From assembly GCA_964553135.1 (NCBI GenBank), contig CAZKJL010000001.1:563946-627945 (forward strand): a DNA stretch of 64,000 nt. The letters run 5' to 3'. Position numbers and translations under genes: made by a program. Origin of the DNA: an uncultured Candidatus Peribacteria bacterium (lineage in GTDB: Bacteria > Patescibacteriota > Gracilibacteria > Peribacterales > Peribacteraceae). Below the pieces are notes generated by a model. It made no database searches. It worked only from the letters and a program-made list of their open reading frames with translations, and was not told the origin of the DNA. Shown piece by piece: positions 16,290 through 58,072 of this stretch (position 1 is the first letter of the stretch; every line of letters starts with the position of its first letter).

Positions 16290-18221
16290 TTATTTCTGCT
16301 CGCTGCCTCCCTCGGCCCTTGCCTTCTCATCCGCCCGCTTCTTCATGACTTCCTCGGGCTTCGTGGTGATGATGGTGTGTTCGCTGGGGCTTGCCACCAC
16401 CTGAATGGCCACGTGGGTGTTGCCGGCGAAGAGCACGCCTTGTCCCACTCCGGAGTTCAGGAGCAGGTATTTCTCACCCTCCGTGAGGTAGAAGAGCTTG
16501 GCCAGGTTATCCACGCTTGCGGCGGACTGCTTCAGAAGCAGCTGCAGCGAGGTGTTGCTGATGATCGGTTTTCCGTACGGTGAGTTGATGAAGTCATCGA
16601 TATCCTGCGTGATCGTGGTGACACCCAGGTAGTACTTGCGAGCGCGCTTGATGAGTCCGTACAAGAACTGTGCGGAATCTTCGTACTGCATCAGGTTCCA
16701 TGCTTCGTCGACCACGAGGAGACGCTTGCGCATGTCGGAGCGGACGCGGTTCCAGAGGAAGTTCAGCACGACGTAGATGGCGATGGGGCGGAGCACGTCT
16801 TCCAGGTCGCGGATTTGGAACACGACCATTTCTTTCTCGAGCTCGATGTTCGTGGGGCGATCAAACAGTCCGGAGAAGCTGCCCGTGGTGTACTTCTGCA
16901 GGGTCTGCGCCATCGATTCGCCGCCGTTGCTCGTCATGAGCACGTCGATGAGGTCGTGGAGCGTGGGAGCTTCCATCTTTCCGGGCTCCTGCGTCTCGAG
17001 CGTGATGCCCTTGAGCGCGTAGGTATCGAGGATCGCACGGTCGAGGATTCCTTCTTCGGACGGCGTGATGGAGCCGAGCATCAGCTTGAAGAGACCGTGC
17101 AGGTTGATGGCCGCGCTTCTGAGCACTTCACCCACTTCGGCTTCCTCACCGCGGACGGCCTTCGGGAGGTCGAACGGGTTGATGCGGAACGAACTCTGGA
17201 GCGAGATGGGGATCATGGATCCGCCGACGGTGCGACACAGGTCCACGTATTCGTTTTCCGGGTCGATGACATAGGCCTGCACGCCCTGGATGAGCGAGCG
17301 CAGGATCTCCAGCTTCACGACGTAGGATTTACCGGCACCGGACGTGGCGAACACGTTGGCGTTGGCGTTCGGCAGGTCGAAGCGGTCGAAGATGATGAGC
17401 GAGTCGTTGTGACGGTTGATGCCGTAGAGCACACCGTGGTCATCGGTGAGGTCCGAGGAGCTGAACGGGAAGCTCGTGGAGAGAGCTTGGGTGTTCATGT
17501 TGCGGTTGAAGTCGAGCTCGTCCATGCAGTAGGGCAAGCAGCTGGTCCAGCCGTGTTCCATCTGGAAGGCCGTGGGCTTGGTGAGGATCAGCTTGCCTCC
17601 GAGGATCGCTTCTACGTCGGTCTGGATCTTCTTCAGTTTCTGCTCGTTCTCGGCGTAGATGGTGAAGTAGAACCCGAGCTGGAACAGTTTCTCGGATCCG
17701 CGTGCAAGAAGGTCACGCAGTTCTTCGGCGTCCTGCAAGGCCGCTTCGAGAGCAGGGTCGCGAACGATGCCACGCTGCTGGAGCATGCGGATGCTCGAAC
17801 GCATTTCGGCGACTTTCTTGCGGAGCATCTTCAGGATCACCTTGTTGCTCGCAGGGTAAATGAACATCGAGATGTCGATCTGAATGTCGAAGTTGATGAG
17901 CTGACTGAGCCAGTTGGGGTAAATCTGGCTCGGCCAGTTGTAGGCGTAGAAGCTGCGCGCCACGAGCTGCTCATTGAGCTGGATCATGGAGCGGTCGAAC
18001 TTCAGTCCGGCCGGCGCGATGACGTCGAGGAGTTTCTGCAGACCCTCTTCATACTTCTTCACGATTTCTTTTTCATCCTTGGTGAGTTCCAGGTCATCAT
18101 CGTCCTTGCTGAGGACGTCTTCGATGTCACGGTGCAGTCCCAGAAGTTCGTCGAGAACATCGAGGAGTTTTCCCGCGATCGGAGGAGCCGTTTTTTGTTT
18201 GTGTACAGCCATTTGTGACAT
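16290..18221 (-). CDS. VirB4/TraC-like type IV secretion ATPase (DUF87 family)
   Basis: Walker A FATSGAGKSYVV, Walker B LLVVDEAWNL, and overall VirB4-like length and layout. Start at 18221 or 18212. Confidence 0.8.
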   Translation of the reverse strand: MSQMAVHKQKTAPPIAGKLLDVLDELLGLHRDIEDVLSKDDDDLELTKDEKEIVKKYEEGLQKLLDVIAPAGLKFDRSMIQLNEQLVARSFYAYNWPSQIYPNWLSQLINFDIQIDISMFIYPASNKVILKMLRKKVAEMRSSIRMLQQRGIVRDPALEAALQDAEELRDLLARGSEKLFQLGFYFTIYAENEQKLKKIQTDVEAILGGKLILTKPTAFQMEHGWTSCLPYCMDELDFNRNMNTQALSTSFPFSSSDLTDDHGVLYGINRHNDSLIIFDRFDLPNANANVFATSGAGKSYVVKLEILRSLIQGVQAYVIDPENEYVDLCRTVGGSMIPISLQSSFRINPFDLPKAVRGEEAEVGEVLRSAAINLHGLFKLMLGSITPSEEGILDRAILDTYALKGITLETQEPGKMEAPTLHDLIDVLMTSNGGESMAQTLQKYTTGSFSGLFDRPTNIELEKEMVVFQIRDLEDVLRPIAIYVVLNFLWNRVRSDMRKRLLVVDEAWNLMQYEDSAQFLYGLIKRARKYYLGVTTITQDIDDFINSPYGKPIISNTSLQLLLKQSAASVDNLAKLFYLTEGEKYLLLNSGVGQGVLFAGNTHVAIQVVASPSEHTIITTKPEEVMKKRADEKARAEGGSEQK

Positions 18222-18283
18222 CAAACTATTATACCAGAAAGAAGCCGACTCTCCAAGGGGTCTCAAACGGTCTTTTCGATGGG

Positions 18284-29563: not shown

Positions 29564-29583
29564 GTGTCACGGTAGCTCAGTTG
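29564..29583 (+). repeat. Orphan duplicate of the 5' end of tRNA-Met
   Basis: GTGTCACGGTAGCTCAGTTG at 29564-29583 is identical to 29657-29676, the start of the intact tRNA. The sequence after it does not fold as a tRNA. Confidence 0.8.
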
Positions 29584-29658
29584 CCTAGCCGAGCTTGCGA
29601 GGCGTCAGAAATAAGGGAAGCGCGGTTGCTCATCGTTCCTTTCGATCGGTTCATACGT

Positions 29659-29734
29659 GTCACGGTAGCTCAGTTGGTAGAGCATGGGACTCATAAGCCC
29701 AGGGTCGCCGGTTCAATCCCGGCCCGTGACACCA
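29659..29734 (+). tRNA. tRNA-Met (anticodon CAU, elongator-type; Ile2/lysidine type not excluded), CCA encoded
   Basis: Acceptor GTCACGG/CCGTGAC, D arm GCTC-AGTTGGTA-GAGC, anticodon loop CTCATAA, T arm GCCGG-TTCAATC-CCGGC, ACCA. Confidence 0.85.
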
Positions 29735-31413
29735 TACAGGTCGCTAATGTTATGACGGCTATCAGACTTCTCTGACTCAGGAATCATAAGCTCCAGAGTC
29801 ACGTCTGAGCCGTCAATTACTATGCGCTTCACAAGGTCATGAATGATGAGGCGTTTTGTTTCAAAATCCAGCTTCGCCAATGCCTTAGCGTACTTTTTTG
29901 CTATGTCCTTTGCGGCAATCAGACGCTCTCTCCGCTCCTCTGCATCCATCAGTTGAGACGCTATCGCTTCCAGGTCATCTGTGAGCTTAATTTTATCCTC
30001 TGTAATGCGCTTAGATTCTACCTCCAGTTCTCCTTCACCCTGATAGTCAAAACCCTTCTGATAGAGGTTCTTCACCCTCTGCCATTCTGCGGTTAATGCA
30101 TCAAACTCTTGCTGCTTCTCTGCTCTTTCCTGCTCAAGCTCGTATACATTCACTTTCTTTTTCTCTTCTTCCTCAATGCGCTTAATGAATACCTTGGGGT
30201 CAGATAACAACTGGGATACCTCCTGCCACACCCTTCCTTCAAGGATAGAACCCGAAATCTCTTTGTTATCACAAGGCGTAGGACTCTTACTCTTATTGGC
30301 TTTGCGACAACGATATTGCGGTAATTCGCCTATCTTTGTTTTCACGCCATCAATCGTTTTAATTTGAGGCTTCATGTAGCCCCCATAAGTAGACATGCAC
30401 CTGGCGCAATCCACTTTTCCAGAAAGCAGATATGTGTGCCTTCCCAGTTTTTGGGTGCGCTTGTTCTGTTCCAGTAGAGATTGTGCCTTCTTCCATATCT
30501 TTTTGCTGATGATCTGTGGACAAGGTATTGGAATCCAATCTTCCTCAGGATTCAGAACCTCCTTCATTTTTTTGGCTACAGCATCGTATTTCTTAGTCTT
30601 CTTTCCATAGTAATACAGGCCTGTATAGGCCTCATTCCTAAGGAGGCGGCCAACTGTTTTGTCGTGCCAGTAATTAGCTGGATTCACTTTGCGAATCTCC
30701 TTCTTGAGTTTCTTCTTTTTTCTGAGCTTATCCGCAACGCGGTCTGCCTGGGTTGGAATCTGTAAGGCATTCAATCGCTGCTGAATCTCGTAGGTTGTTT
30801 TTCTGTCTCTCACGAACCACTTAAATATCTTCTGCACGATCTTAGAAGTTTCAGGATTGATAGCGATTTTTTGGGAGTCAGGGTCTATGTCATAGCCATA
30901 TGAGTGCATCCCACCCACCCATTTCTTGTCTTTAGCAGCCTCAACTCTGCCTATGGCTGTGCGTTCCATAATTAAGTCCCTCTCCATCTCTGCAATGATT
31001 CCCAGGAGTCCTAGCATGAACTTTCCAAAGGTCGTTGTGGTGTTCACTTCCTGCTGAGACGTAGCGATGAAATCTATGTCTATATCCCTTAAATCCTCAA
31101 TAGCATTGAGCAGATAGCGCGTTTTGCGGAAGAATCTATCCAGCTTCCACACTAAGACCACATCAAACTCCTTCTTCTTCGCGTCCTCAAACAAGCGCGG
31201 TAACTCTGCTCTCTCGTGAATCTCAGACGCTCCTGAGAAGCCATCATCTATGTAGATATATTTCTCATTAAACGTATAAAGTTCGTCGTTTGCTGCCAGC
31301 CACTTCCGCATTTGTGATATCTGGGAGTCCTTTCCGTACTTCTCTCCTTGCTCAGTAGTACTCACACGAACATACATGCAAGCACGTCTCTTTGTGTTGT
31401 CTTCTTTCTTCAT
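29713..31413 (-). CDS. Large serine recombinase
   Basis: Resolvase catalytic domain (MYVRVSTTEQ, VLVWKLDRFFR), recombinase domain, zinc ribbon (CARC...CRKAN) and C-terminal coiled coil. The stop codon lies inside the tRNA-Met T-loop. Confidence 0.9.
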   Translation of the reverse strand: MKKEDNTKRRACMYVRVSTTEQGEKYGKDSQISQMRKWLAANDELYTFNEKYIYIDDGFSGASEIHERAELPRLFEDAKKKEFDVVLVWKLDRFFRKTRYLLNAIEDLRDIDIDFIATSQQEVNTTTTFGKFMLGLLGIIAEMERDLIMERTAIGRVEAAKDKKWVGGMHSYGYDIDPDSQKIAINPETSKIVQKIFKWFVRDRKTTYEIQQRLNALQIPTQADRVADKLRKKKKLKKEIRKVNPANYWHDKTVGRLLRNEAYTGLYYYGKKTKKYDAVAKKMKEVLNPEEDWIPIPCPQIISKKIWKKAQSLLEQNKRTQKLGRHTYLLSGKVDCARCMSTYGGYMKPQIKTIDGVKTKIGELPQYRCRKANKSKSPTPCDNKEISGSILEGRVWQEVSQLLSDPKVFIKRIEEEEKKKVNVYELEQERAEKQQEFDALTAEWQRVKNLYQKGFDYQGEGELEVESKRITEDKIKLTDDLEAIASQLMDAEERRERLIAAKDIAKKYAKALAKLDFETKRLIIHDLVKRIVIDGSDVTLELMIPESEKSDSRHNISDLYGVTGRD

Positions 31414-31465: not shown

Positions 31466-31495
31466 TATGTCGCGTAAGGAACATTATGCGACATA
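31466..31495. promoter_or_regulatory. Inverted repeat (possible operator) in the divergent recombinase/J-protein intergenic region
   Basis: TATGTCGC-N14-GCGACATA. Confidence 0.3.
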
Positions 31496-31653
31496 GAGAT
31501 TTTTGAAAATAACACACTATCTCATATTGTCTACATGGCCACCACCCTCCCCCAGGTTTCCGCTCTCCTCCCATCACCCGTCTTAAGCCCCACCAAAAAC
31601 TCTCCAGAGTCTCATCCCTCTCTGTTTCTGAATAAATTCTGTATGATGGAGCG

Positions 31654-33441
31654 ATGTTGGGCATCTTCCGCGTACTCTTTGGCAAACAAACATCAGGCAA
31701 TTCCCTAGTTTCCCAGTCCCCAGCAAAGAGTAATTCAAAGGGAACTCCATTTATTGATATCACTAAGGCAAAAATAGTTGTGCTCCCCAGGCTGCCCACA
31801 GCCAATGAATATCAAAAAGAGGGCATCTCTCATCCTCAGGAATACTGGGAGAGCTACAACAAAGGACAATCGCTCTATGGCAGAGGATGGTACGAGAAAG
31901 CCAAGGTGGAGTTTCTAAAGATTTACGATAATGAGCATGGGAATGCGTACTTCAGCCATCTCCTGCGAACGTACAGGCAGGGCGCAGAACGGTTTATAGA
32001 GAAGAAGAAATACGAAGATGCTCTACGCGAATACACGGAAATGTTTATAAAATGCCCTAATACAACGAATACGGATGTAAGGAAGTACAATAAACTCATT
32101 GATGCGATGGGGGCAGATGTGAAGAAAAAGCAGCTTATTGAAGTGGAGAAAGAGGAACCTGAATTTGTCTGCGATGGAAAAGTGATTGCCTTCCTTTCGG
32201 AAGCGAAGAAGCCCAAAGGCTTTAAGATTGAATACGATAACGAACGGCTCTCCCAGTATGCCCTTCGCAACAAAAAGCAGACGCTCACACCGCTGCTTCC
32301 GTACATCGTAGTTGAAGGCAACACAGTGCAGTACGCGGATACGGTTGAGTTCCCAAAAACGAGCCGCAAGCTCTACAGAATAAAAACAATACCAACTCCC
32401 TCTACCCCCTTCATGTTCAGTACGGAGGACTTACAGATTTACCTCTCTGACTGGCAATTCAATGAGCTACAGCACTTGGATGCATCCAGGTACACATCAG
32501 AGAAATACCATCTTCGGTGCATTGATATGGCTGGCGATCTTTCCGCTTTTGTCTTCACCATCGTTGATGAATGCTACCTAGTGAATGAGAATTTTAAGGT
32601 ATTCGGCGTATGGAGAGTTCCCTACAAAATTGATACGCAAGATGCAAAATATAAGAGAGAAACAAGGAGCGGAAACAATGGCAATGCTCAGAATACTGAT
32701 GTGCGCGAGGCACTGAATACCTTGGGAATCTCCAAAGATCAGCCCACCACAGACGATGTGAAACAGGCTTTCAGGCAGTTAACGAAGCAATATCATCCTG
32801 ACAAATACAAAGGCGAGGATGCGGAAGAGCGCACGAAGGCGATCATTGGCGCGTATGAACTCATTAAGAATGCGGACTTGCAGGGTGTGAATGCAGCGGA
32901 CATGGAAGATGAGTACTGGATGGAGGTGACACACACCTCAACATTTAATGCACACGGCTTTGAATTCACACTGCAAATGGGAATGGTGGTAGACCCTTCA
33001 GACTGGATATATGGAACTGGAATGGCGAAGGATGGCTCTCGTATTTACCTGGGTTGTTACTCAGGAAAAGTGTATTCCATCAACACGGAGGGAGTTGCGG
33101 ATATGGTCTACGTTATCCCCAGCGCAGAGCCAATATCTGAGATAATGGAATGCGGCGAATACCTTCATATATCTACATACTCACAGGTCTACATTATTCA
33201 TATAGAAGAACAGCGATTCATTAAAGCCATTCAACTGCATGGAGAAGAAAACGGTGCATCAGGATACGTTAAATACTATGAGGATGGATTCGTTCATGTG
33301 CTGGGTGATGCAGTTACAATCCATGACTGCAAAGGCGAAAAGTTAGGTTCTGTGAGCTTCGCAAAGAGTCTAAAATCTATCTGCGTTGCAGACGGGAAAT
33401 TCGTCTTTGAAACAGCTAGCAAACTGTATTTGTTTGGATGA
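31654..33441 (+). CDS. J-domain (DnaJ-like) protein with TPR-like N-terminal region and beta-propeller-like C-terminal region
   Basis: Central J domain DDVKQAFRQLTKQYHPDKYKGEDAEERTKAIIGAYELIKN with the HPD motif. The C-terminal roughly 170 aa have repeated beta-strand units (GSRIYLGCYSGKVYSIN, YLHISTYSQVYIIH, GFVHVLGDAVTIHD, GKFVFETASKLYLF). Confidence 0.7.
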   Translation: MLGIFRVLFGKQTSGNSLVSQSPAKSNSKGTPFIDITKAKIVVLPRLPTANEYQKEGISHPQEYWESYNKGQSLYGRGWYEKAKVEFLKIYDNEHGNAYFSHLLRTYRQGAERFIEKKKYEDALREYTEMFIKCPNTTNTDVRKYNKLIDAMGADVKKKQLIEVEKEEPEFVCDGKVIAFLSEAKKPKGFKIEYDNERLSQYALRNKKQTLTPLLPYIVVEGNTVQYADTVEFPKTSRKLYRIKTIPTPSTPFMFSTEDLQIYLSDWQFNELQHLDASRYTSEKYHLRCIDMAGDLSAFVFTIVDECYLVNENFKVFGVWRVPYKIDTQDAKYKRETRSGNNGNAQNTDVREALNTLGISKDQPTTDDVKQAFRQLTKQYHPDKYKGEDAEERTKAIIGAYELIKNADLQGVNAADMEDEYWMEVTHTSTFNAHGFEFTLQMGMVVDPSDWIYGTGMAKDGSRIYLGCYSGKVYSINTEGVADMVYVIPSAEPISEIMECGEYLHISTYSQVYIIHIEEQRFIKAIQLHGEENGASGYVKYYEDGFVHVLGDAVTIHDCKGEKLGSVSFAKSLKSICVADGKFVFETASKLYLFG

Positions 33442-33447
33442 GATGTC

Positions 33448-34767
33448 TTATTGAATCTGAGCCTCTGGTGTCCCAGTAGGGAGGGTTTCGGTTGCCAGCT
33501 TCGGAGGAGCTATTAGCTCAGTGACCATCTCTGGTAATTCTGGAAGTTCAGGCAGAAGGTTGCCCATGTCTTTCACCTTTTCCAGTGAGCGCGTCACGCT
33601 CTTCTGTCCAAGCCATGACTTGCCCACAGCATCGTTCCACGACTTAGAGGCATACTCTAGCCCTTTGTGAACGCCAACGAGCCTTTGAACGAAGTTCTCC
33701 AAGCGTCTACCCAGTTCTTTCACTTCTACGGAAAGTGCCTGAGCTTGTGTTGCAATTCTGTGCTGCCGCCATGCGTCAGCAATGAGCCAAATGAGAGGCA
33801 TGAGCGTTGCAGGACTCGTTACAATGACTTTCTGTGCCGCACAGTCCTGTAGCAACTCCTGGTCACATTCAAGTGCTGCTCTCATAGCGGCCTCACTGGG
33901 AATGAAGATCACAACGTAAGGTACTGAATCAGGTACGAACTCTTTATATTCGCGTTTTGTTAAATCTTTCACGCGATCTCTGAGCTTCGTACAAAACTCT
34001 TTATGCAGTAGCTTGCGCTCTTCATCGGTCTTAGCGTTATCTGCCGCCAGATAACTCTCGTACAGGGAGGCCTTGGCATCAATGGCAAGGGAGCGGCTGC
34101 TATGAGGGAGTTTAATGATGCAGTCTGGACGCAAACGGCGTCCCTCATCATCCAGGGATGTTGTCTGAATTGTGTAATCCGTTCCTTCTCTCAGATCACT
34201 CATTTGCAAGATATTTCTCAGCACTAACTCTCCCCATCGTCCGCGTACTGCGCCGCTAGTCGTTAGAGCGGTTTTAAGATGCTGAGTCTCCTCTATCAGC
34301 TTCTGTTCCTGTGTGCTCAATCCCTCAATCTGTTTTTCTAGCTGCGCGTACTTCACTGTCCTATCTGTCTCAAACTGAGTGATCTTGTCATTCGCACTCT
34401 TTAGCTGATCTGTCAGACCCTTCACTATGGATTCAATGGCTTGTTTACTGAGTTCCATTTTTCCCTCTGCTGCCGTAGTGATCTGAGTGAGGTCTTTTTT
34501 GGCACTGGCCTCATACAGTTTAGCCTCCTGCTCTAAGACTGTGGATGCCACTGCTTTAAAAGTGGTCTCCAATTTCTTCTCTGTTAACTGCATATCCTGG
34601 ATACGCAGATCGTAGGCCGTCTTAAGGTTCGCGATCTCGCTTTGATGCTGTAGCTCCTTTTGTACCATCTGGCCTCTCAGGGTGGCTATCGCAGCGTTAC
34701 GCCAAAGAAACACACCTACGCCTCCCAGCAGTCCGCCTAGGCCAATGAATAGAAGGTTGGTGAGCAT
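33448..34767 (-). CDS. rmuC: DNA recombination protein RmuC
   Basis: N-terminal TM helix, long coiled coil, and RGRWGELVLRNIL...LRPDCIIKLP...LAIDAKASL, the RmuC nuclease-like core. Confidence 0.85.
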   Translation of the reverse strand: MLTNLLFIGLGGLLGGVGVFLWRNAAIATLRGQMVQKELQHQSEIANLKTAYDLRIQDMQLTEKKLETTFKAVASTVLEQEAKLYEASAKKDLTQITTAAEGKMELSKQAIESIVKGLTDQLKSANDKITQFETDRTVKYAQLEKQIEGLSTQEQKLIEETQHLKTALTTSGAVRGRWGELVLRNILQMSDLREGTDYTIQTTSLDDEGRRLRPDCIIKLPHSSRSLAIDAKASLYESYLAADNAKTDEERKLLHKEFCTKLRDRVKDLTKREYKEFVPDSVPYVVIFIPSEAAMRAALECDQELLQDCAAQKVIVTSPATLMPLIWLIADAWRQHRIATQAQALSVEVKELGRRLENFVQRLVGVHKGLEYASKSWNDAVGKSWLGQKSVTRSLEKVKDMGNLLPELPELPEMVTELIAPPKLATETLPTGTPEAQIQ

Positions 34768-34815: not shown

Positions 34816-35238
34816 TTAATGGTTACGCCAATAATCAGAGACTTTCCGTGACTGAGCGAAGAAAAACTTGAGCCGCCCATCTGCATCCTCTTCTTTGGGA
34901 ACAAGGTACCCCAATTGCTCTGCTAAATCGTAAAAACCGTCCCCAGGTCTCCATGCTTCTTGGTTGTACACGATGGAACTCATCAGGAAACGTTCATTTT
35001 CATCCGTAATCTTCTTTGCATACTCCTCTGTTAGCTCACCCAGCATGTGGCGAAGCGCGAAGGAGTTAGCGTTCAGATGGATATGAGGAAGCTGATCATG
35101 CAGTCGGTCAGATAACTCACTATAGCTAATGACCCCCTCTGGGCTTTTGGCAATCGCGATAAGAAGCAGTTCAATCTTCTTCTTAGTGGGTTCCCACTCC
35201 ACGTCATCTTTGCCCATGTCATTGCGTATTGGTTCCAT
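34816..35238 (-). CDS. Hypothetical protein upstream of rmuC
   Basis: ORF 48 nt upstream of rmuC on the same strand. Start set at MEPIRND (35238) to leave promoter space; the ORF extends to 35307. No family recognised. Confidence 0.45.
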   Translation of the reverse strand: MEPIRNDMGKDDVEWEPTKKKIELLLIAIAKSPEGVISYSELSDRLHDQLPHIHLNANSFALRHMLGELTEEYAKKITDENERFLMSSIVYNQEAWRPGDGFYDLAEQLGYLVPKEEDADGRLKFFFAQSRKVSDYWRNH

Positions 35239-35310
35239 ACGAGAAAAAGGAATTGCGGTAAAGTGGGCTAAAATATACAGTAAAGACGCTTTCTTTTCTA
35301 CGCGCATTTA

Positions 35311-36276
35311 GTGAAGTTTGGCTTCCGCACACCATCACTCAAAAAAAGATTCGCAGCCAGAACATCTGTGAAGCGATTCGTGCGGCACTCTATGGGATTG
35401 AAGGCTCCTAGAGGAATGGGGATGCTCACAAACCCCAAGAAAGCCCTCTACAACAAGGTCTACAGGAAGACGACTTTCGGCATTGAGGATGTACTAAAGA
35501 GCGGCAAACGCACTGCATCTAAAGCCTCTCATTCTTCCGCTCCTGTTTCCCTCAACTCTATGTCCAAGCCGCCAATGGGTGCTTCTCAGAAGAAGATTTT
35601 ATGGATTGGAATTATTGGAACAATCGTCCTGATCTTCACTGGAGTTGGCGTAGTACTCGCGCCTTTCTTCCTCATTGGAGTGGTCTACTACTGGAATAAA
35701 ACTCCTGAAGTCAGGATGAAGAAGGCACTGACGATGAGCAATTACCTCTATAAGAAAGGACAGATACAAGAATCTATTGATGCTCTTTTGCCTTTTAAGG
35801 ATGCCAAAAACTATGAGGTCTCTAGCCGCCTCGCACATCGGTACGGACAACTGGGAAACTATGCAGAGGCAGAGACGTATGGAAGTTTTTGCTACGAGCG
35901 GAACCCTCATGACCTGGAGAATTTATATGTGCATTCCATCACTCTCTTTAATTTGAAGAAGTACAAAGAGTCGCAAGCAGCACTCTCCATTCTCCCAGAT
36001 TCCGCGCAGACAGAACCCATATTCGCAAACATCATCGGTGCGAACTACAACGGCATGGGGCAGGAAGATATAGCTGTAGAAATTTATAAGAAGTGCCTTG
36101 GCAGAAAGCAGAACATTGATGGTGAAGAGATCAGCATAGCCATTAACCTGGCGAAGATTCTCATTGAGAAAAAGAAGAAGGCAGATGCCAAAAAGTTCCT
36201 TCTGAGAATCCTCGCAGTTAGCCCAATGCATGAGGAAGCAACGGAACTGTTGGCGAAGACAGAGAAAAACGATTAA
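35311..36276 (+). CDS. Membrane-anchored TPR-repeat protein with basic N-terminal motif
   Basis: GTG start. N-terminus KFGFRTPSLKKRFAARTSVKR...GMLTNPKKALYNKVYRKTTF, TM helix ILWIGIIGTIVLIFTGVGVVLAPFFLIGVVYY, then TPR-like repeats. Confidence 0.6.
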   Translation: MKFGFRTPSLKKRFAARTSVKRFVRHSMGLKAPRGMGMLTNPKKALYNKVYRKTTFGIEDVLKSGKRTASKASHSSAPVSLNSMSKPPMGASQKKILWIGIIGTIVLIFTGVGVVLAPFFLIGVVYYWNKTPEVRMKKALTMSNYLYKKGQIQESIDALLPFKDAKNYEVSSRLAHRYGQLGNYAEAETYGSFCYERNPHDLENLYVHSITLFNLKKYKESQAALSILPDSAQTEPIFANIIGANYNGMGQEDIAVEIYKKCLGRKQNIDGEEISIAINLAKILIEKKKKADAKKFLLRILAVSPMHEEATELLAKTEKND

Positions 36277-39200
36277 TCGCTTATACGAATCTTCTCCGTG
36301 TTCTTGCACTTAGGATATTTGCTACATCCAAAGAACACTCCATATCGTCCCTTCTTGGGCTTCATTGTGCCTCCACAGCCAGGTAGCGGACACTCGTAAT
36401 GCTGCAAGCTCGTGATATCTATGCTCTCAGTCTTCTGCTTCCGTAGGTTACGAGCATTCGTTTTTGCGCCGCATTCGCTGCATTCAAAATAGACACCGAA
36501 CTTCCCATTCTTCCAAACCGTCTCACCATTGCAATCATCACAGAGAGGATTTTCTTTCTCGTGAATGCTGATGCCCTTTCCTCCCGAAGGAGTACAAACG
36601 AGTTGGGCTATCTGGCTGCATGTCTTCTTCCCAGGGATTCTCAACATGCTTTCTGAGGAGTTTGTATGAGAGAGAATGTTGAGGGAGCCATGCCAGAGAA
36701 TGGAGCCATCAATCACGCAAATCTTTTCATGCATCTTGGAGCGCAGATCAACAGTTACGCCTGTATCTATAAGGGCTTGCACGGCAGGAGTGAGGCCATT
36801 AGCCATGATCTCCCCCAGTTCCTCAATGGGACGGAAAACAAGGCGTATCAACACTCCACGCCTCTGGGCATCCTTCAGGAGTTCTACCCACCTACTAAGG
36901 CCATTGAGCGTCACGAATGGTGAGAAGATCGTGATGGATTTCTCCGCCTTCTGGATGTCTTGGGTGAATGCAGGATAGAAACTGCCTTCATTGAAAGCCC
37001 CTGCACTATCCATATCCAGCTTGAGCTTTGTTTTCGTGAGACGGTCTAGAGCGTCATGCCAGTCCTGATCGCCAATGGGTAACAGTTCGCGCACATCCAG
37101 CGGAGAGCCGTGCTTCTCAAAGTATTTCAGGATGTTCAATACCAACATGCCTTCCTTGGCGGTTCTCCGTAGGAACTCAAAATTGGCCACGAGGATGATA
37201 TGTTCCTTGGCGCGGCTGAAAGCCACATTCAGCAGTCTTCCGCCTTCCTCCTCTCTCTGTGATGCTGAGAGGAACCGCCCCAAGCGCACACCCTCTGAGT
37301 CCGTGAGATCAACAATCATTGTCTCTTTCTCATTCCCTTGGAAACGGTGAACGGTAGAAGCAAATGTTGCTGGCCTTCCCAGCTTATCCTCTATGAGTGA
37401 AGCAATGAGCTTCGTTTGCGCCGCATACGGAGACACAATGCCTAGTGTTTTATTTTCCTCATCTGCCTGAGGTAAATATTTCTTTTTAGCGAAGAAAGAA
37501 ACGATGTTACGAATGAGGAGCGCATGGAACAGGTTGTAGCGCGAATACCCTCCCAGTTTCATGGAAGCCCACGGATGGAATGCGGACGTATCAACGTATA
37601 ACAAAGGCTCTTTGGAAAGGGGCATCTTGGAGACATTCTTCCCTACGCTCACATCTGGAATCAGAGGATGATCGTAGTAGAAATGTTCATTGATGCAGTC
37701 ACAGATGGCTTTCTTCATACGGAACTGAATCTGGAGCGCACAAAGGTACTCAGGAGGCTTCTTGGACTGCACTTTCTCAGGAATGCCAGCCATCTCAAAC
37801 ACGTCTTTCTTGAGCCATTCCAGAGCCTTTGGCTCATCAGACATGACAATGGGTGAAAGCTGTCTGAAGTCCCCAGCGATGACCACGGATTGCGTAGCAA
37901 GCCCAGAGGCGTAATACGTCATGGGAAGCATGACCATGGAGGCTTCATCCACGATCACCACATCAAACTCTCTATGCAGATGCGACTCTAAGAACGTCCT
38001 GTAGACGGTTGTAGCCAGGATGCGGCAGTTCTTGAGTACCTGTTCACGGACGGCTGCTAACTGGGTATCAATCTCCTTCACTTGGAGGTACAGATTCTCA
38101 ATCTGCTTCTCTGTAGTGGCAATGGAGGAAGGATACGATACAACGTTAGGATGCTCCTTGAGCTTCGCTTCAATATCCTTCGTCAGTGCCTCTAGCTCAT
38201 CTGCTTCCTTCCCTGCATTGGCAACAGCCTTATCAATCTCTGATGCTGCGTCCACTGAGGATTTCCGCATGATCTCCGCTTGGCTCATCTCTCGCATGAT
38301 CTTTTCTGGATGCAAACCCAGCACCATGCGCTTGAGGGAGCCAGCGTTCTTCGCTCGTGCCAACTTCTCCTCCAAGGAGTCCTTTTTAGTCTGATACTGA
38401 GATATCTTTGCCGCCAACCCAGAGCGTTTCTGCTGATGGGCTTGGAGGGTCTTTGCGGAGAATTCCATCTTCTTTTCCGCATCCTTCAGTGCCTGATGGA
38501 AGCGGATGGCTTCTTGCATCGGCTGTATCTGTCCCTCTAGGTGTGAGATTTCCAGTACGAGCTTCTGCCTTTCCCCCTGTAGTCCTTCACTCAGGCGTTC
38601 CACGATCTCATCAATGAGCACTTGTTTGCCATGCTTCTCAATCAGTTCCACCTTCATGGCTGGCCCCAAGCGGATGACTGAGCCGCGTTGATACTCCTCA
38701 TCTGTCACTAAGCGCTCAGCGACTTTTTCCAGAGCAGTATCCACGGCAATGTTCGTATTGGATACGAGTAGCACGGAAAGCCCTTTGCGATAGAAGCCTT
38801 CTACGACTCGTGCCAGCGTTGTGGTCTTCCCTGTTCCTGGCGGCCCCCAGACATAGGTAACTTCACTGCCAAGAGAACGGCGGATGATTCTCTGCTTCTC
38901 CTCATTCATGCCGCCAAGCAGCGTCTCATCTAGCTCAGCATCAGCAGAGGCTATATTTCCTTCTCCAATGACCTTCTCAGCGAGTCCAGCGTTAAAAGCT
39001 GCCTCTCCGCTCTGCACTTCACCCAGACGCTCCTTGAGGCGTTCTAGAAGGAACGAGTTATCAATGATGATTCGCGCACTGGAGATCGTGTCTCCAAGAT
39101 CAGCCTCCAATGCCACGATCAATACGCCCTCATTCGTAGAAACGATGATGCCTGGGATATCATCTTTCCCACAGGCAAGGCGTATGGGTGAATCATCTTT

Positions 39201-39374
39201 CAACTGCGTACCTTCAATATCTTCTGAGAGAGGAAAGCGATAGAGGGTGTTTGTCCCTTCAGTCTGTAGGCGTTCTCCTCCGCGCACAGTGATTTGTTGA
39301 GAGTTACCTTTCTTGCGAATGGCGGCAACCTCTAGGCCCAAAGCCTCAATCATGTGCGTTAGATTGTCCGCCAT
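36273..39374 (-). CDS. SF1 (Upf1/DNA2-like, COG1112-type) helicase fused to a PLD/HKD nuclease domain and two topoisomerase-type zinc ribbons; Mokosh type II-like
   Basis: Walker A GPPGTGKT (aa 177-184), coiled-coil insertion, motif II VVIVDEASMV, FRMKK and VHRFQGNEKE helicase motifs, a single HKD motif MHEKICVIDGSILWHGSLN (about aa 881-899), then CDDC...CSEC and CPLPGC...GCSKYPKC ribbons. Confidence 0.8.
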   Translation of the reverse strand: MADNLTHMIEALGLEVAAIRKKGNSQQITVRGGERLQTEGTNTLYRFPLSEDIEGTQLKDDSPIRLACGKDDIPGIIVSTNEGVLIVALEADLGDTISSARIIIDNSFLLERLKERLGEVQSGEAAFNAGLAEKVIGEGNIASADAELDETLLGGMNEEKQRIIRRSLGSEVTYVWGPPGTGKTTTLARVVEGFYRKGLSVLLVSNTNIAVDTALEKVAERLVTDEEYQRGSVIRLGPAMKVELIEKHGKQVLIDEIVERLSEGLQGERQKLVLEISHLEGQIQPMQEAIRFHQALKDAEKKMEFSAKTLQAHQQKRSGLAAKISQYQTKKDSLEEKLARAKNAGSLKRMVLGLHPEKIMREMSQAEIMRKSSVDAASEIDKAVANAGKEADELEALTKDIEAKLKEHPNVVSYPSSIATTEKQIENLYLQVKEIDTQLAAVREQVLKNCRILATTVYRTFLESHLHREFDVVIVDEASMVMLPMTYYASGLATQSVVIAGDFRQLSPIVMSDEPKALEWLKKDVFEMAGIPEKVQSKKPPEYLCALQIQFRMKKAICDCINEHFYYDHPLIPDVSVGKNVSKMPLSKEPLLYVDTSAFHPWASMKLGGYSRYNLFHALLIRNIVSFFAKKKYLPQADEENKTLGIVSPYAAQTKLIASLIEDKLGRPATFASTVHRFQGNEKETMIVDLTDSEGVRLGRFLSASQREEEGGRLLNVAFSRAKEHIILVANFEFLRRTAKEGMLVLNILKYFEKHGSPLDVRELLPIGDQDWHDALDRLTKTKLKLDMDSAGAFNEGSFYPAFTQDIQKAEKSITIFSPFVTLNGLSRWVELLKDAQRRGVLIRLVFRPIEELGEIMANGLTPAVQALIDTGVTVDLRSKMHEKICVIDGSILWHGSLNILSHTNSSESMLRIPGKKTCSQIAQLVCTPSGGKGISIHEKENPLCDDCNGETVWKNGKFGVYFECSECGAKTNARNLRKQKTESIDITSLQHYECPLPGCGGTMKPKKGRYGVFFGCSKYPKCKNTEKIRISD

Positions 39375-39381
39375 AGTTAAT

Positions 39382-41487
39382 TTAGTAGTTGTAATCCTTC
39401 ATGCAGTAGCTGCCGTTAAGTGAATAGCCAGCGTTACAAAGGCATCTCTCATCCTCAACGCTGAAATATCCACCAGTCCCACAATACGATTTACGAACAC
39501 AACTGCCGTCCTTTGGGTAGTAATCGCTATCGCAGATGCAGCCACCAGTCTGCTGATTGAAGGTTCCGCCGTAGCAAGAAGGCTCTCTCACACAGCTTCC
39601 ATTCTGCTTGTAGTAGCCCTCATCACAATCACATGCGCCCGTCTGTCTGTTGTAGGTTCCGCTATAGCCACAAGCAAGGTATTCACTGATGCATGTGCCG
39701 CCCTGTGATACATATCCAGTGTTGCAGTAGCACTTCCCAGCATCCTCATCAAAACTGCTGTTATATGGACAATCCACTTCTTCGTAGCATTTTCCATCTT
39801 TAACGTAGTAACCGTAATCACATTCACACTGTTTTGCCGTGTAATTAAACGTGCTGTTTGAGACGCAGTTTGGAACCTTTACACATGTATTGTTATTGGC
39901 GTAGTAGCCAGTATTACAAACACAGCTTGCCTCTGCGTAGCTATAGAAAGCATTGGAGCCAAATTCTGAGCAATCATGCGTTGGAGTGGGTGCAGGAGGT
40001 GGAGTGCTAATGGTCGGAGTGGGAGGCGTTGTTTCACGATAGGTTGGCTGTTGCTGTGGAGTGCCAGACGTTCCGCTATTGAAATCAGAGGGGTCAAGAT
40101 AAGCCACACCTCTATGGCTCTCTGGGATGTTGCCCAAGAACGTCTCAACGCTGCTTGCTCCAATGGCAAACTTTACGCCATCAATGCTAAGGGTATTTAC
40201 GCCCACTACTTCACTTGCCGTATTCAATAGCGGCCCTCCAGAGTTACCATGAGTGATCTCCGCATCTGTTTGTATGAACTCCATCCCAGAATTAGAGGTG
40301 CGAACGGCACTAATAATTCCCTTTGTGATGCTCTCTGTGAAAGACTGAGGGCTACCGACTGCAAACACAGTCTGCCCCTGCCTTGCTGTTGATTGCAGGG
40401 ACAACGATGGAAATGGACTGGGATAATCCACAACAAAATCACCATTTTGGAGTACGAGATTCGTAACAGCCAATGCAGCAAGATCATTTGTTCCTCCACC
40501 TGTTGCAATTACCTGTGCAATACGCGCACGTTTCTGATCATCAACGATAATTACAGGAGGGCCAGAGCCAAGTGCATAGGTTCTATCTTCATAGGCAACA
40601 GGCTCAACAACGTGGAAGTTTGTAATGAGTGTGTAGTCATCAATGAAAAAGGCTGTTCCTTGCGAAACCGTATCATCGCCGCCTGGAACGATGACTGTAA
40701 CTACAGATGGAAGTGCTTTAGTAAGAACTTTAGAGGCATCGCCATCCTGTCTCCTAATTCGCTCTAGCTCCGCTTCAGCCTCATCCGTTTTCCCTCTCAA
40801 TTCATCCTGAACTTGCTGAGCTTCCCTGAGCAATTGGCTCACGCTGTTCTCAGGAGTGGCAATGCTGACTTTGATTTCTTCTTGTTTCTCCAGGGTGAAT
40901 TTTTGGGCTTCTGCAAGTTCAGAATCAGTCATACTCTTTTTGAGTTCCTCAAGAGCTATATCAGCTTTTTCATGCCCTTGAGCCTTAGCTAGACTCCACC
41001 AAACATAGGCCTTTGATCTACTCTCAGGTGCGCCCTTCCCTGACTCAAACACAATTCCCAAGTAGTACTGAGCCTCAGCATTTCCTTGATGCCCAGCCTT
41101 AGCGAACCATTCTTTCGCAGTGGGGAAATCCTGAGCAACTGCCTCTCCTCTGTAGTAGAGCAAACCCAGAATCAATTGAGCGGTTACGTTGCCCTGTTCT
41201 GCTGAGCGGCTTAGCCATTGAACAGATGTTGCAGCGTCTTTAGGTACTTCATTTTTCCCTACGAAAAATAATCCTGCCAAAGCCAATTGTGACTCCGCAT
41301 TCCCATCATTGGCGGATTTACGGAGAGCGACCATGTCTGTACTAGCCTCTGCCTTAGGGAAAGGGAGATCAGTTGTGCGATCTGCGAATGCACGAACTGA
41401 AAGAATTGCTAGAACGACAATAGAAAGACAGACTATGCTTCCCCCTATGACTAAGCCAATTTTAGAAGTATCAGGCTTGAGCGGCAT
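39382..41487 (-). CDS. Membrane-anchored Sel1-repeat / trypsin-like serine protease / Cys-rich-repeat protein
   Basis: N-terminal TM helix. Sel1 repeats (GNAESQLALAGLF, GNVTAQLILGLLYY, GNAEAQYYLGIVF). Coiled coil. Protease triad contexts TNFHVV, NDLAALAV, GNSGGPL. Pro-rich linker. Six repeats of about 32 aa with four cysteines each (C-x-C-x2-GYY-x4-6-C). Confidence 0.75.
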   Translation of the reverse strand: MPLKPDTSKIGLVIGGSIVCLSIVVLAILSVRAFADRTTDLPFPKAEASTDMVALRKSANDGNAESQLALAGLFFVGKNEVPKDAATSVQWLSRSAEQGNVTAQLILGLLYYRGEAVAQDFPTAKEWFAKAGHQGNAEAQYYLGIVFESGKGAPESRSKAYVWWSLAKAQGHEKADIALEELKKSMTDSELAEAQKFTLEKQEEIKVSIATPENSVSQLLREAQQVQDELRGKTDEAEAELERIRRQDGDASKVLTKALPSVVTVIVPGGDDTVSQGTAFFIDDYTLITNFHVVEPVAYEDRTYALGSGPPVIIVDDQKRARIAQVIATGGGTNDLAALAVTNLVLQNGDFVVDYPSPFPSLSLQSTARQGQTVFAVGSPQSFTESITKGIISAVRTSNSGMEFIQTDAEITHGNSGGPLLNTASEVVGVNTLSIDGVKFAIGASSVETFLGNIPESHRGVAYLDPSDFNSGTSGTPQQQPTYRETTPPTPTISTPPPAPTPTHDCSEFGSNAFYSYAEASCVCNTGYYANNNTCVKVPNCVSNSTFNYTAKQCECDYGYYVKDGKCYEEVDCPYNSSFDEDAGKCYCNTGYVSQGGTCISEYLACGYSGTYNRQTGACDCDEGYYKQNGSCVREPSCYGGTFNQQTGGCICDSDYYPKDGSCVRKSYCGTGGYFSVEDERCLCNAGYSLNGSYCMKDYNY

Positions 41488-42616
41488 GGTGTGAGTTTTG
41501 GAAATTTTGATATGCGAACGTGCCGCGCACTCCGTTTATTAAACCAAAAAGGAATACTATTGCGATTCCAATACCCGCTCCGCTGATCTGTCCTTCTGAA
41601 AACTGGAATGTCTTTTCAAGGATGAAGAGTACCAATCCAGCCACCGCTGCCGTACGAGAATAGAACTGCATACCTAATCCAATGACAGCAAAGAGAAGGG
41701 CATCCAACATTGCCCACGCATCAATACCACCTATGGATTGATCTGTAGCCAACGCAAACAGTGCAACTCCAGCAGTGAGAACCGCGATGACATACGCAAC
41801 TCCATAACCTTGCGCCACTGCCTTCTTCGCGCTCTCTATTGAATCAATTGTTAGGAACCACTGATTAGATGTTTTCTTCTTAGATGCAGTTACTATAGGA
41901 GTGGAAGCTGCCTTGGCAGATTGTTTTTTAGGAATGTCCATTTTCGTAGTAAAACCTTCCTGTTTCTTCCCCAAAAAATTGAGTTCCTTGGGGCCAAGGA
42001 TGCCAACACTGTATCCTGCTTTCTTCACCATTTTTATAGCATCTGCATACGCACAGAAGAACGCGATAATGCCAATGATGCCACCTAGAAGCAGTGAGCC
42101 TATAGCAGCGTATTTCCATGCGGATTTCCAGACCAATATCTCAATGGCAATCATGCAGTAAACGACTCCCAAGAATATAAGACCAGCAATCCCTGCTACA
42201 AAATCACTGTTAAGAATTGCAGCAAGAATAAGGCCAAGAATTCCACCCAGGAAAAAGACATTGCACCACTTCAGATGAACAGCGACCTTATCGGCTTTAC
42301 CGCTCTCTGATGGAACTGTTTTAACCAAAGCTGCTTTGGGTGGAGTGTGCGCTTGCGCTTTATGACTTCCAAAGCCCACATAAAGAACACAGTGGTATAA
42401 GCCCACTGCTACCAGATACACAACGAGGGGAAAAATGATGATTGCAGTCTTATCGTCCTCCTCCAGGGTCAATAAAATACCCAACAGCAAAGCCAATCCC
42501 GTGCCTCCTAAAATGAAAACTTCAGCGAGTCTGTTCCACCATTTTTCTTGTACTTCAAGCCTACGCGGAAACAGGGGCAGTTTCATAGCTTCAAAGATTA
42601 CAGGAGATGTAAGCAA
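41471..42616 (-). CDS. Multi-pass membrane protein (hypothetical)
   Basis: About 9-10 hydrophobic helices with a Lys-rich cytoplasmic linker. 17-nt overlap with the downstream protease gene. Confidence 0.6.
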   Translation of the reverse strand: MLTSPVIFEAMKLPLFPRRLEVQEKWWNRLAEVFILGGTGLALLLGILLTLEEDDKTAIIIFPLVVYLVAVGLYHCVLYVGFGSHKAQAHTPPKAALVKTVPSESGKADKVAVHLKWCNVFFLGGILGLILAAILNSDFVAGIAGLIFLGVVYCMIAIEILVWKSAWKYAAIGSLLLGGIIGIIAFFCAYADAIKMVKKAGYSVGILGPKELNFLGKKQEGFTTKMDIPKKQSAKAASTPIVTASKKKTSNQWFLTIDSIESAKKAVAQGYGVAYVIAVLTAGVALFALATDQSIGGIDAWAMLDALLFAVIGLGMQFYSRTAAVAGLVLFILEKTFQFSEGQISGAGIGIAIVFLFGLINGVRGTFAYQNFQNSHHAAQA

Positions 42617-49393: not shown

Positions 49394-50323
49394 ATGGAAA
49401 TCACCACCTCACGTTCACTCACGGCAGTCCCAAAACAGATTCACTCCGCCTACATCCAGGCATTTATTAAGAACCAGAACACCTTCAACACGCGAAGGGA
49501 TTACAAGCAGGAGGTGAACCTGTTCTATCGCTCTGTGGGGAAAAACATGGAGCAAGTAACTCTGCATGACCTGATCTCATACAAAGAACAGTTAGAGAGC
49601 AGAGGCCTTAAGCCAGCAAGCATTGCCAAGAAGCTGACCGTGCTGAGGAGGCTCTTCACATTTTTCTATGAGCAGGGAGTGCTGCCCACCAACCCAAGTG
49701 CTGGCTTGAAGCTCCCTAAAGTAAAAAATGAAACCACGCGCACGATTCTCTCTCTCGCTGAGTGTAACCGTCTGCTTTCCAGCATTGGCGCATCCACAGT
49801 CATGGGCCTAAGAGACCGAGCGATCTTGGCACTCCTCTGCATTAATGCGCTCAGGATTTGCGAGATATCTAGAGCTAATGTGGGAGATATAATCCAGAAC
49901 GATGGATGTGTAGCGCTTAGGGTGCATGGAAAGGGCGGACGCGAGGATGAGACGCGCCTGAGAGAAGACGTGCTGAATGCCATCAATGCCTATCTGAATG
50001 CGAGAGGAGAAGTGAAGGCTGATGAGCCATTATTCGTAGGCTCAACGCATAGAAAGGGTGAAAGAATCTCAACGCGAACCATCCAGCACTTCGTGAAGAA
50101 ATACATGAAGAAGATAGGTATTAACAGGCCTACGGTGGTAACGCACTCGCTGCGCCATTCAGCAATTTCCGCTCTCATAGAAGCAGGAGTGTCCCTGTTG
50201 GATACACAAACCTTCGCACGGCACTCCTCAAGCGTTGTAACCCAGCGGTATATCCATCAGAAAGACAAGATGAAGAACCATGCGGTACTCAGAAATCCTA
50301 TAACAATGCTGCCCCTGGAATAG
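49394..50323 (+). CDS. Tyrosine recombinase/integrase (XerC/D-like)
   Basis: N-terminal SAM-like domain. Catalytic contexts ALRICEIS (R), HGKGGRE, HSLRHSAIS (HxxR), and RHSSSVVTQRYIH (catalytic Y). Confidence 0.9.
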   Translation: MEITTSRSLTAVPKQIHSAYIQAFIKNQNTFNTRRDYKQEVNLFYRSVGKNMEQVTLHDLISYKEQLESRGLKPASIAKKLTVLRRLFTFFYEQGVLPTNPSAGLKLPKVKNETTRTILSLAECNRLLSSIGASTVMGLRDRAILALLCINALRICEISRANVGDIIQNDGCVALRVHGKGGREDETRLREDVLNAINAYLNARGEVKADEPLFVGSTHRKGERISTRTIQHFVKKYMKKIGINRPTVVTHSLRHSAISALIEAGVSLLDTQTFARHSSSVVTQRYIHQKDKMKNHAVLRNPITMLPLE

Positions 50324-50523
50324 CACCTGAAACCATCTGTAATTGAATGCGTTCTTGCTTCGTTAGTTCCCTTACATAAGCCACTTTCCAGTTAATCAGT
50401 ATCAGGTAATAATATTGGCGACCCGTGCTACCATTCAACTTCGCTTCGCGAAGTCTCATGGCAAGCCATCGAGGTTCAACTTGTCCTGAACGGAGTGAAG
50501 GATCCCGGCCCGTGATACCGCTC

Positions 50524-58031: not shown

Positions 58032-58072
58032 GATACGCATCAGACTATTATAACAAATTTTAGCCGATGCGT

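Follow-up and report, generated by a model that had tools for sequence, protein, structure and literature searches.

A J-domain protein encoded on a tRNA-Met island of a Peribacteria genome carries its J domain inside a scaffold shared with some Shango loci and may direct host Hsp70 in genetic conflict

Why does an integrated mobile element carry a J-domain protein of its own, and onto what would such a protein turn the Hsp70 of its host? The question is raised by a gene in the middle of a 64,000-nucleotide stretch (the window) from an uncultured Candidatus Peribacteria bacterium (assembly GCA_964553135.1, contig CAZKJL010000001.1, positions 563,946 to 627,945). The gene, called the J gene here, encodes a protein of 595 aa with a helical and beta-propeller-like scaffold. 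Comparison with relatives lacking the J domain indicates that the J domain is nested in this scaffold, and the same scaffold appears in variants of the Shango anti-phage system. The protein probably steers host Hsp70 onto a specific target in conflicts between cells, phages and mobile elements.

The J domain was recognised by profile and structure-database searches. Pfam DnaJ (PF00226) matched aa 356-407 with an E value of 3.8e-10 (40.1 bits; curated cut-off 27.8) and was the sole Pfam family over its curated cut-off in the protein. When the Protein Data Bank (PDB) was searched by sequence, J domains alone were matched; the best E value was 2.1e-6 with the single sequence, and the family profile matched PDB J domains down to 6.4e-18. 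The start codon is backed by the conserved N-termini of the aligned homologues, in which set the window protein is P0001. The HPD tripeptide is kept in more than 90% of 35 aligned members and in 160 of the 169 wider relatives that have the J region. In the 35-member alignment, K370 of helix II is invariant and R374 nearly so, and A400 and Y401 of helix III are invariant or nearly so. These matches and this conservation mark the J domain as canonical and under selection. Pfam found no DnaJ Gly/Phe, zinc-finger or C-terminal domain family in the protein. Since the J domain alone passes the Pfam cut-off and these other DnaJ regions are missing, the sequence assigns the protein to class C (type III) of the J-proteins and not to the class A/B DnaJ/CbpA type. 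These results agree with a preliminary description of this DNA, made from the letters alone, which had placed a J domain with an intact HPD motif in the middle of the protein, without Gly/Phe or zinc-finger regions; the region passes J-domain profile searches.

How is the J domain built into the rest of the protein? Relatives without a J domain are informative here. In P0057 (1212 aa), P0070 (1074 aa), P0086 (924 aa) and P0085 (756 aa), the family profile matches two collinear and abutting stretches, hmm 31-341 and 454-605. These correspond in P0057 to aa 29-338 and 342-489. At the junction of P0057, the flanks '...FYWKTP' and 'DEITGTFISRDASRIYLGCSSG' ('DEITGTF...RIYLGC') are linked by about 15 aa, and the window protein has about 120 aa at this place. 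Because the profile stretches abut in the J-less relatives and the junction is visible at the level of residues, the protein is read as a single scaffold into which the J domain was inserted. Thus, the J domain and the hairpin that follows it are nested in one helical/propeller scaffold, and this topology is new.

The J-less relatives also connect the scaffold to a known defence system. The scaffold of about 490 aa in the window protein is homologous to the N-terminal part of P0057, P0070 and P0086. These three proteins end in TerB-C (Pfam) and match the C-terminal half of PADLOC SngA (E about 1e-22). Downstream of P0070 lie genes for SngB (E 5.6e-155) and SngC (E 7.8e-193). P0086 is followed by orthologues of the P0070 SngB (82% identity) and SngC (73-88% identity), and P0057 by a SngB orthologue (76% identity to that of P0070). 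In the locus of P0085, the scaffold, TerB-C and a BrxC_BrxD ATPase are encoded by successive genes. The loci of P0057, P0070 and P0086 are therefore classified, by their gene content, as Shango systems whose SngA-like TerB-C proteins carry the J-less scaffold. The anti-phage activity of Shango has been validated experimentally, and its TerB part is thought to be the sensing end (10.1101/2022.05.11.491447; 10.1101/2022.11.11.516204). In some Shango systems the J-less scaffold appears to take the place of the TerB-N/TerB half of SngA. Because the J-less scaffold forms part of these SngA variants, it is an exchangeable module of a defence system: one lineage couples it to TerB-C, an ATPase and a helicase, and the other to a J domain.

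The predicted structure is consistent with this arrangement. An AlphaFold2 model of the window protein, built on 35 homologues, was of good confidence (mean pLDDT 83.6, pTM 0.66) and gave both the J-domain helices and beta blades. Among 179 relatives, 8 have a predicted transmembrane helix in place of the short hydrophobic peptide at the N-terminus, and a ninth has an internal one; the peptide may serve in membrane association. The preliminary description had called the N-terminus TPR-like. Five helices in hairpins are indeed predicted there, yet Pfam TPR_2 stayed below its threshold (E 0.035, 14.7 bits; cut-off 27), and profile positions 115-191 (window aa ~105-175) matched designer pentatricopeptide-repeat (PPR) proteins in the PDB instead (E 1.6e-11), via T-N-T-D-x-x-x-Y-N-K-L-I. 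TPR being only weakly supported, 'helical-hairpin repeat' is the safe wording for this region. PPR-like hairpins are unusual in bacteria. Repeated beta blades had been noted in the preliminary description at the C-terminus, where about four were predicted; the blades upstream of the J domain, and thus the nesting, had been missed. The conserved core of the family begins at about aa 232-250 of the window protein (profile ~248-600). Its most conserved motif, DWIYGxGxSxDGSRIYLGCYSGKxY, lies in the first blades after the J domain. D450, W451, Y453, L466, G467, S470, G471 and Y474 are invariant in the C-terminal blades, and the blade motif is also kept in the J-less P0057. Foldseek searches of PDB and viral models returned WD40-type propellers only (E about 1e-9, probability 1.0), at low TM-scores, in alignments of about 385-400 columns, so that the beta strands before and after the J domain are included. 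No propeller family, WD40 sequence repeats included, was found in the window protein by Pfam at E<=0.1. A single closed 7-blade propeller was considered: a core-only model again gave WD40 matches, yet with TM-scores below 0.5.

The J gene is cargo of a 20.8-kb low-GC island that is integrated in a tRNA-Met gene (Table 1). GC content drops from 0.55-0.60 to 0.45-0.50 across about 30-52 kb of the window, and the limits of the island are placed as they are because the 3' end of tRNA-Met recurs at its far end. Encoding by a mobile element, as proposed in the preliminary description, is borne out by the low GC content, the attachment repeat and the adjoining serine recombinase. The first 20 nt of tRNA-Met have an exact copy 93 nt upstream (29564-29583 versus 29657-29676), which may be what is left of another tRNA copy or of a previous integration. 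In the 240-nt region between the divergent serine recombinase and J genes, an inverted repeat with a 12-bp stem (TATGTCGCGTAAGG...ATGCGACATA) was observed at 31466-31495, overlapping promoter-like hexamers; it could be an operator or a recombinase site. On its other side the J gene converges with a gene for an RmuC-family nuclease, and the two stop codons are 6 nt apart. The best PADLOC match of this nuclease is DRT-associated RmuC. Between the RmuC and helicase genes, at 34816-36276, a 163-aa protein without family match and a 321-aa TPR protein (TPR_19, E 2e-9) are encoded. These two genes are missing from L014, a related Peribacteria locus, in which RmuC abuts the helicase-nuclease. The island helicase gene combines an SF1 helicase (AAA_11/AAA_12) with a PLD nuclease and a Top1-type zinc ribbon (PADLOC MkoA/MkoC-like, E 4.8e-61), and the protease of 701 aa has Sel1 repeats and a trypsin-like part. 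Together with the 381-aa protein beside them, they may form an uncharacterised system. The island also encodes a DnaG-like primase. Beyond the island, in the high-GC flank, a TraG/VirB4-like P-loop ATPase is encoded at 16290-18266 on the minus strand (P-loop_TraG, E 6.7e-25).

Table 1. Features of the J gene, its protein and the surrounding island (window coordinates; aa, residues of the J-gene product)
Feature	Residues	Position	Strand	Basis or remark
tRNA-Met		29659..29734	+	ARAGORN; 3' end 29716-29733 is the left attachment repeat (18 nt)
Large serine recombinase, divergent neighbour at island edge		29713..31413	-	Resolvase + Recombinase + Zn_ribbon_recom
J gene, class C J-domain protein (helical and beta-propeller scaffold, J domain nested)	595 aa	31654..33441	+	
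Short hydrophobic N-terminal peptide MLGIFRVLFG and disordered linker	aa 1-29	31654..31740	+	pLDDT <50; motif conserved in close homologues
Five-helix helical-hairpin (TPR/PPR-like) region: 62-76, 80-89, 97-116, 120-133, 139-152	aa 62-152	31837..32109	+	AlphaFold2
Beta strands upstream of J domain, including two 4-stranded blades (aa 240-321)	aa 171-336	32164..32661	+	AlphaFold2 strand pattern, full and core-only models
Insertion: linker, J domain and long beta-hairpin, missing from J-less relatives	aa ~326-448	32629..32994	+	Profile and residue alignment
J domain, helices I-IV (347-356, 366-380, 390-406, 414-417)	aa 347-417	32692..32904	+	Pfam, PDB matches, AlphaFold2
HPD tripeptide between helices II and III	aa 381-383	32794..32802	+	Motif QYHPDKY at 32791-32805
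Long beta-hairpin just after J domain	aa 421-446		+	AlphaFold2
C-terminal blades, about four, 4-stranded	aa 450-594	33001..33435	+	AlphaFold2
RmuC-family nuclease, convergent neighbour		33448..34767	-	Pfam RmuC E 8.8e-73; N-terminal hydrophobic helix (MLTNLLFIGLGGLLGGVGVFLW)
Three consecutive genes: helicase-nuclease, protease, 381-aa protein without match		36273-42616	-	
Tyrosine integrase		49394-50323		
Right attachment repeat		50502..50519	+	17/18 identical to tRNA-Met 3' end; just past tyrosine integrase

How widespread is this protein? Among 5.8 billion proteins, 35 clusters at 90% identity were found; nearly all members are 575-625 aa long and align end to end, with 25-100% identity. A profile search of 1.84 billion representatives gave 145 clusters (50% identity) at E<=1e-30. 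By this count the family is rare (about 150 clusters at 50% identity) and scattered over bacterial phyla. With one genome per species for 185,579 species, only 13 loci were obtained, from Candidatus Peribacteria (80% and 51% identity), Desulfobaccales, Bacteroidota, Planctomycetia, Aminicenantes, Thermodesulfovibrionales, others and one methanogen. The only archaeal copy, at 10553-11556 of locus L025 (Methanobacterium sp. ERen5, CP099988), is split into ORFs of 133 and 206 aa, lacks the N-terminal part and is probably a pseudogene gained by transfer. No relatives with the family motifs were found in IMG/VR (2.9 million viral contigs), and none in INPHARED (50,697 phage records), in which the single match was a 56-aa J-domain stretch. 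A phage origin of the J gene was considered, and these negatives rule against it. The homologues are patchy and lie in variable contexts rich in defence genes or elements, rather than being consistently chromosomal housekeeping genes.

The family also varies at its ends. Of 179 sequences, 97 are full-length and 59 have only the core behind other N-termini. DUF805 and TerB-C were the only known domains that Pfam found in the variable N- and C-terminal extensions, and a PDB sequence search found nothing there. In a subfamily of about 700 aa (P0119, P0125, P0132, P0143 and the L062 protein), the N-terminal ~350 aa have no Pfam or PDB match and contain the conserved motifs 'GRxxxxLxxWLEKxGxIxRxxxGKTYxLY', '...PLPxSPxxW...' and 'DRPDPAFRK'. 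A strand motif 'LPxLP' is found both in this subfamily and at aa 40-50 of the window protein. Residues ~10-35 of the core-only protein P0130 (669 aa) are GLPDLFLLIDRKPLFVECK, and this N-terminus resembles by eye a VRR-NUC / PD-(D/E)xK nuclease motif, which would be fused to the J-propeller core.

Does the J gene have a fixed partner? Neighbours were clustered all against all, at 21 and then at 39 dereplicated loci, and Pfam and PADLOC matches were tallied for 110 proteins encoded within two genes of the J gene at 38 dereplicated loci. No obligate partner was found in this set, in which no family occurs in more than 4 of the 110 flanking proteins. Because of this, the J-protein is suggested to be a stand-alone protein that draws on a host factor. 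Some families nevertheless recur near the J gene: serine recombinases at five dereplicated loci, at most three genes upstream; SF1 helicase-nucleases at four, including a 1573-aa PDC-S37/Hhe-like protein; RmuC and SNF2 helicases of the DrmD/BrxH type at three each; and DUF2130 and OLD/GajA-like ATPase-nucleases at two each. IS21 genes are represented by two proteins each with Pfam IstB_IS21 and rve. Loci other than the window carry genes for HsdR, DrmD, OLD/GajA-like, LmuB-like, PDC-S37/Hhe-like helicase-nuclease and FokI-like proteins, together with toxin-antitoxin and transposase genes. Some of these loci are dense islands. In L018 the J gene stands with HsdR, a full-length DrmD two genes away, an AriA/OLD-like and an LmuB-like gene, and in L019 genes for DUF2130, OLD-like, J and SF1 helicase-REase proteins run in one direction. 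L002, an element resembling a phage satellite, has genes for DnaB-like helicase, HTH and small terminase proteins as well as toxin-antitoxin genes.

What would such a protein do? An HPD-bearing J domain binds DnaK in its ATP state and stimulates hydrolysis of the nucleotide, whereupon DnaK locks onto a nearby polypeptide; in class C J-proteins, specificity comes from the non-J modules. From this Hsp70 biology, the simplest inference would be a scaffold that binds a protein and a J domain that sets host DnaK on it. The helical and propeller scaffold would be a recognition module, or sensor, for a particular protein. The J domain in the scaffold loop would recruit host DnaK and trigger ATP hydrolysis, and DnaK would then clamp onto the protein held by the scaffold, the putative client. 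A role in conflict is suggested because the island has attachment repeats, two recombinases, RmuC, an SF1 helicase-PLD protein and a protease, and because other loci carry defence and mobility genes. Acting in defence, the scaffold might capture a protein of the invader, or one of the host that the invader has altered, and pass it to DnaK for sequestration or unfolding; alternatively, target binding might expose the J domain, derail DnaK function and abort infection. Our leading reading is thus that of an island-borne class C J-protein handing a scaffold-bound target to host DnaK in conflict, with defence favoured. We hold this mechanism as a whole tentatively, at a little under even chances; we are more confident that a functional J-protein acts in conflict, and less so that its part there is defence. 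A stronger version, in which a single gene serves as an immune or counter-immune device with the sensor scaffold shared with Shango, an autoinhibited J domain and host Hsp70 as effector, is doubtful. In this device, binding of an invader protein would lead Hsp70 to destroy the function of that protein, or proteostasis would collapse and abort the infection.

Several observations weigh against the leading reading. The family is known here from sequences and predicted models alone. The preliminary description had placed grpE elsewhere in the window; however, a six-frame motif scan of the window and Pfam on the candidate ORFs scanned found no DnaK or GrpE signature, and neither protein was found in a PDB phmmer search that covered roughly half of the small ORFs outside the island that still lacked annotation and was not exhaustive. 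Two candidates for grpE or dnaK were rejected, ORF 57468-58040 encoding a VTT-domain protein and 58073-59941 a Mur ligase. The Hsp70 partner in the host is therefore assumed. In P0011, P0012 and P0013 (loci L007/L028), which form one small subclade, HPD is replaced by YYPEE, YD-SQ and YDPQ and the remainder is kept, which suggests that DnaK stimulation is dispensable there at least; P0011 adjoins an SNF2 helicase and RmuC. PADLOC-DB 2.0.0 gave no credible match to the window protein, only a spurious MTase_II (E 0.003). Many J loci have no recognisable defence gene within two genes, and the neighbourhood evidence is guilt by association of moderate strength. The propeller matches of the model have TM-scores of only 0.25-0.55 and rmsd values of 11-16 A, so that closure of the blades into one propeller is a tentative reading. 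A last point against comes from plasmids. In a tblastn search of 72,556 plasmids, 'J domain-containing proteins' on four Roseobacter-group plasmids matched window aa 287-594, and they are true core homologues (hhalign 99.7%, E 5.7e-27). On one of these plasmids the homologue directly follows a bona fide ArdC anti-restriction gene (ArdcN + MPTase-PolyVal) and lies upstream of genes for a relaxase and a coupling protein; on another it lies among ParB-like, H-NS, SSB, DUF932 and RadC genes. These sites look like leading or establishment regions, which are reported to be rich in anti-defence genes (PMC11541004).

Mainly because of this plasmid context, we make no firm choice of defence over counter-defence. 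If the protein were a counter-defence or establishment factor, its scaffold would bind a host protein, for instance an enzyme of restriction or defence or a factor of the nucleoid or of replication. Its J domain would make the DnaK of the recipient remodel or inactivate this target, so that a host factor is neutralised and the element can establish itself more easily after entry or excision. Besides the core homologues on conjugative or mobilizable Roseobacter repABC plasmids near ArdC, relaxase, SSB and RadC, this is favoured by the serine recombinase within three genes of the J gene in the window and four other dereplicated loci, at or near the element edge, and by the phage-satellite-like nature of L002. 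Some viral and phage J-proteins, such as polyomavirus T antigen and Rki of phage RB43, reportedly exploit host Hsp70. However, the scaffold without J domain is a Shango component in three loci, L018 and L019 are chromosomal defence islands without obvious mobility genes, and no relatives were found among the viral contigs and phage records searched. Moreover, the plasmid proteins share only the core and not the N-terminal module, and their leading regions are putative. We regard counter-defence as unlikely, though to be taken seriously. The preliminary description had offered takeover, replication or defence as roles; the evidence narrows these to conflict and leaves defence versus counter-defence undecided, and the function itself is still something we infer.

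Might the protein instead be a dedicated regulator of its neighbour? It would then target DnaK to RmuC (ShdA-like and membrane-anchored), to DUF2130 or to SNF2/SF1 enzymes in a two-gene system, and hold the enzyme inactive or activate it, in analogy to the accessory proteins of Shield. ShdA, the RmuC protein of Shield, defends by itself and is modulated by the accessory proteins; some 70 homologues of ShdA occur in DISARM loci (PMC10270631). The J and RmuC genes travel together in a block of 3.1 kb, window 31618-34754 being 83.9% identical to 9965-13098 of L014 with both flanks unrelated, which hints that they are a functional pair in this clade. RmuC stands two genes from the J gene again in L007 (42%-identity clade), a DUF2130 gene in a 34%-identity clade starts 2 nt downstream of the J gene and in the same direction, SNF2 and SF1 helicase-nucleases occur in 3-4 clades each, and the DrmD of L018 is full-length. 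On the other hand, RmuC lies within two genes in only 3 of 38 loci, the low neighbour tally again applies, and RmuC (window, L014) and the SNF2 helicase (L005, L007, L008) are convergent with the J gene and so form no operon with it. RmuC and DUF2130 were also considered as one recurring family, and this was rejected; hhalign gave a probability of 0.6% from very shallow alignments, and with no detectable homology between the two the recurring partner is not one family. The regulator reading is accordingly quite unlikely. That the J gene encodes a routine housekeeping co-chaperone of its host, or is decaying and has no function, is highly improbable. Class C J-proteins with idiosyncratic domains do occur in many bacteria, and the Methanobacterium copy is broken. 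The J gene, however, lies on a low-GC integrated island, its relatives are sporadic (the 13 loci mentioned above) with highly variable neighbourhoods, and conservation over the whole length, with motifs that stay invariant at identities as low as 25-30%, speaks against decay.

How does the protein compare with known systems? Class C J-proteins include DjlA, CbpA and HscB in bacteria and the TPR-J proteins DNAJC3/P58IPK and DNAJC7 in eukaryotes. As in these, the window protein has one canonical HPD J domain together with a module unrelated to DnaJ that specifies client or location, and helical repeats in the same chain. Unlike them, its J domain is non-terminal, inserted with a hairpin in a propeller-type scaffold, and its gene is sporadic cargo of islands and plasmids. 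No described J-protein with this scaffold was found in PDB sequence searches or in the literature, and literature searches on J-domain/defence, DnaJ/propeller, TerB-C and leading region/DnaJ returned no description of the family. The remark of the preliminary description that the architecture belongs to no described system still stands, given the PADLOC result, DnaJ as the sole Pfam family and the lack of a matching paper in these searches. With Shango the protein shares the scaffold of the N-terminal part of the SngA variants; it differs in having no TerB/TerB-C (Pfam), no PADLOC SngA match and no SngB or SngC neighbours, and in having a J domain, which Shango lacks. It has a module in common with Shango and is not a member of it. 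The adjoining RmuC nuclease, with its N-terminal hydrophobic helix, has the layout of ShdA of Shield and travels with the J gene. In contrast to Shield, the J gene is convergent with RmuC and not downstream in an shdA operon (PMC10270631). The Shield accessory proteins are the peptidase-like ShdB and the domain-less ShdC-E, with no J-protein among them, and Shield has been reported only in Pseudomonas (PMC10270631).

Chaperones have also been linked to conflict elsewhere. GAP1-N2 GTPase conflict systems containing HSP70 and GrpE have been predicted, with FNIII-DnaJ fusions (Kaur et al. 2020, PMC7159879). They resemble the window protein in joining a J domain to TPR repeats or to a module rich in beta strands or repeats, and in making Hsp70 an arm of the system. 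They differ in encoding their own HSP70, GrpE and GTPases, none of which is among the commonest neighbour families of the J gene, and in domain partners and taxa. In bNACHT25, host DnaJ is required for phage sensing (PMC12169576). There too, the Hsp70 co-chaperone machinery of the host serves the recognition of infection; bNACHT25, however, borrows a housekeeping DnaJ, whereas the island protein carries a J domain itself and lacks a NACHT module. Taken together, the protein is an architecturally new member of the J-domain co-chaperone class, and a shared module links it to a validated defence system.

If this is true, a gene of a mobile element redirects the universal Hsp70 to one chosen target. 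One recognition scaffold would be wired either to a helicase/ATPase machine, as in Shango, or to Hsp70, and the insertion of a J domain would be an alternative output module that is interchangeable with TerB-C/ATPase/helicase signalling. A J domain nested in a propeller loop would also add an architecture to the catalogue of J-domain proteins. The homologous pair of scaffolds with and without J domain is a natural experiment for domain swapping. It would give a handle on what the sensor part of Shango-type systems recognises and on the role of chaperones in bacterial immunity, a theme that rests mainly on the DnaJ dependence of bNACHT25.

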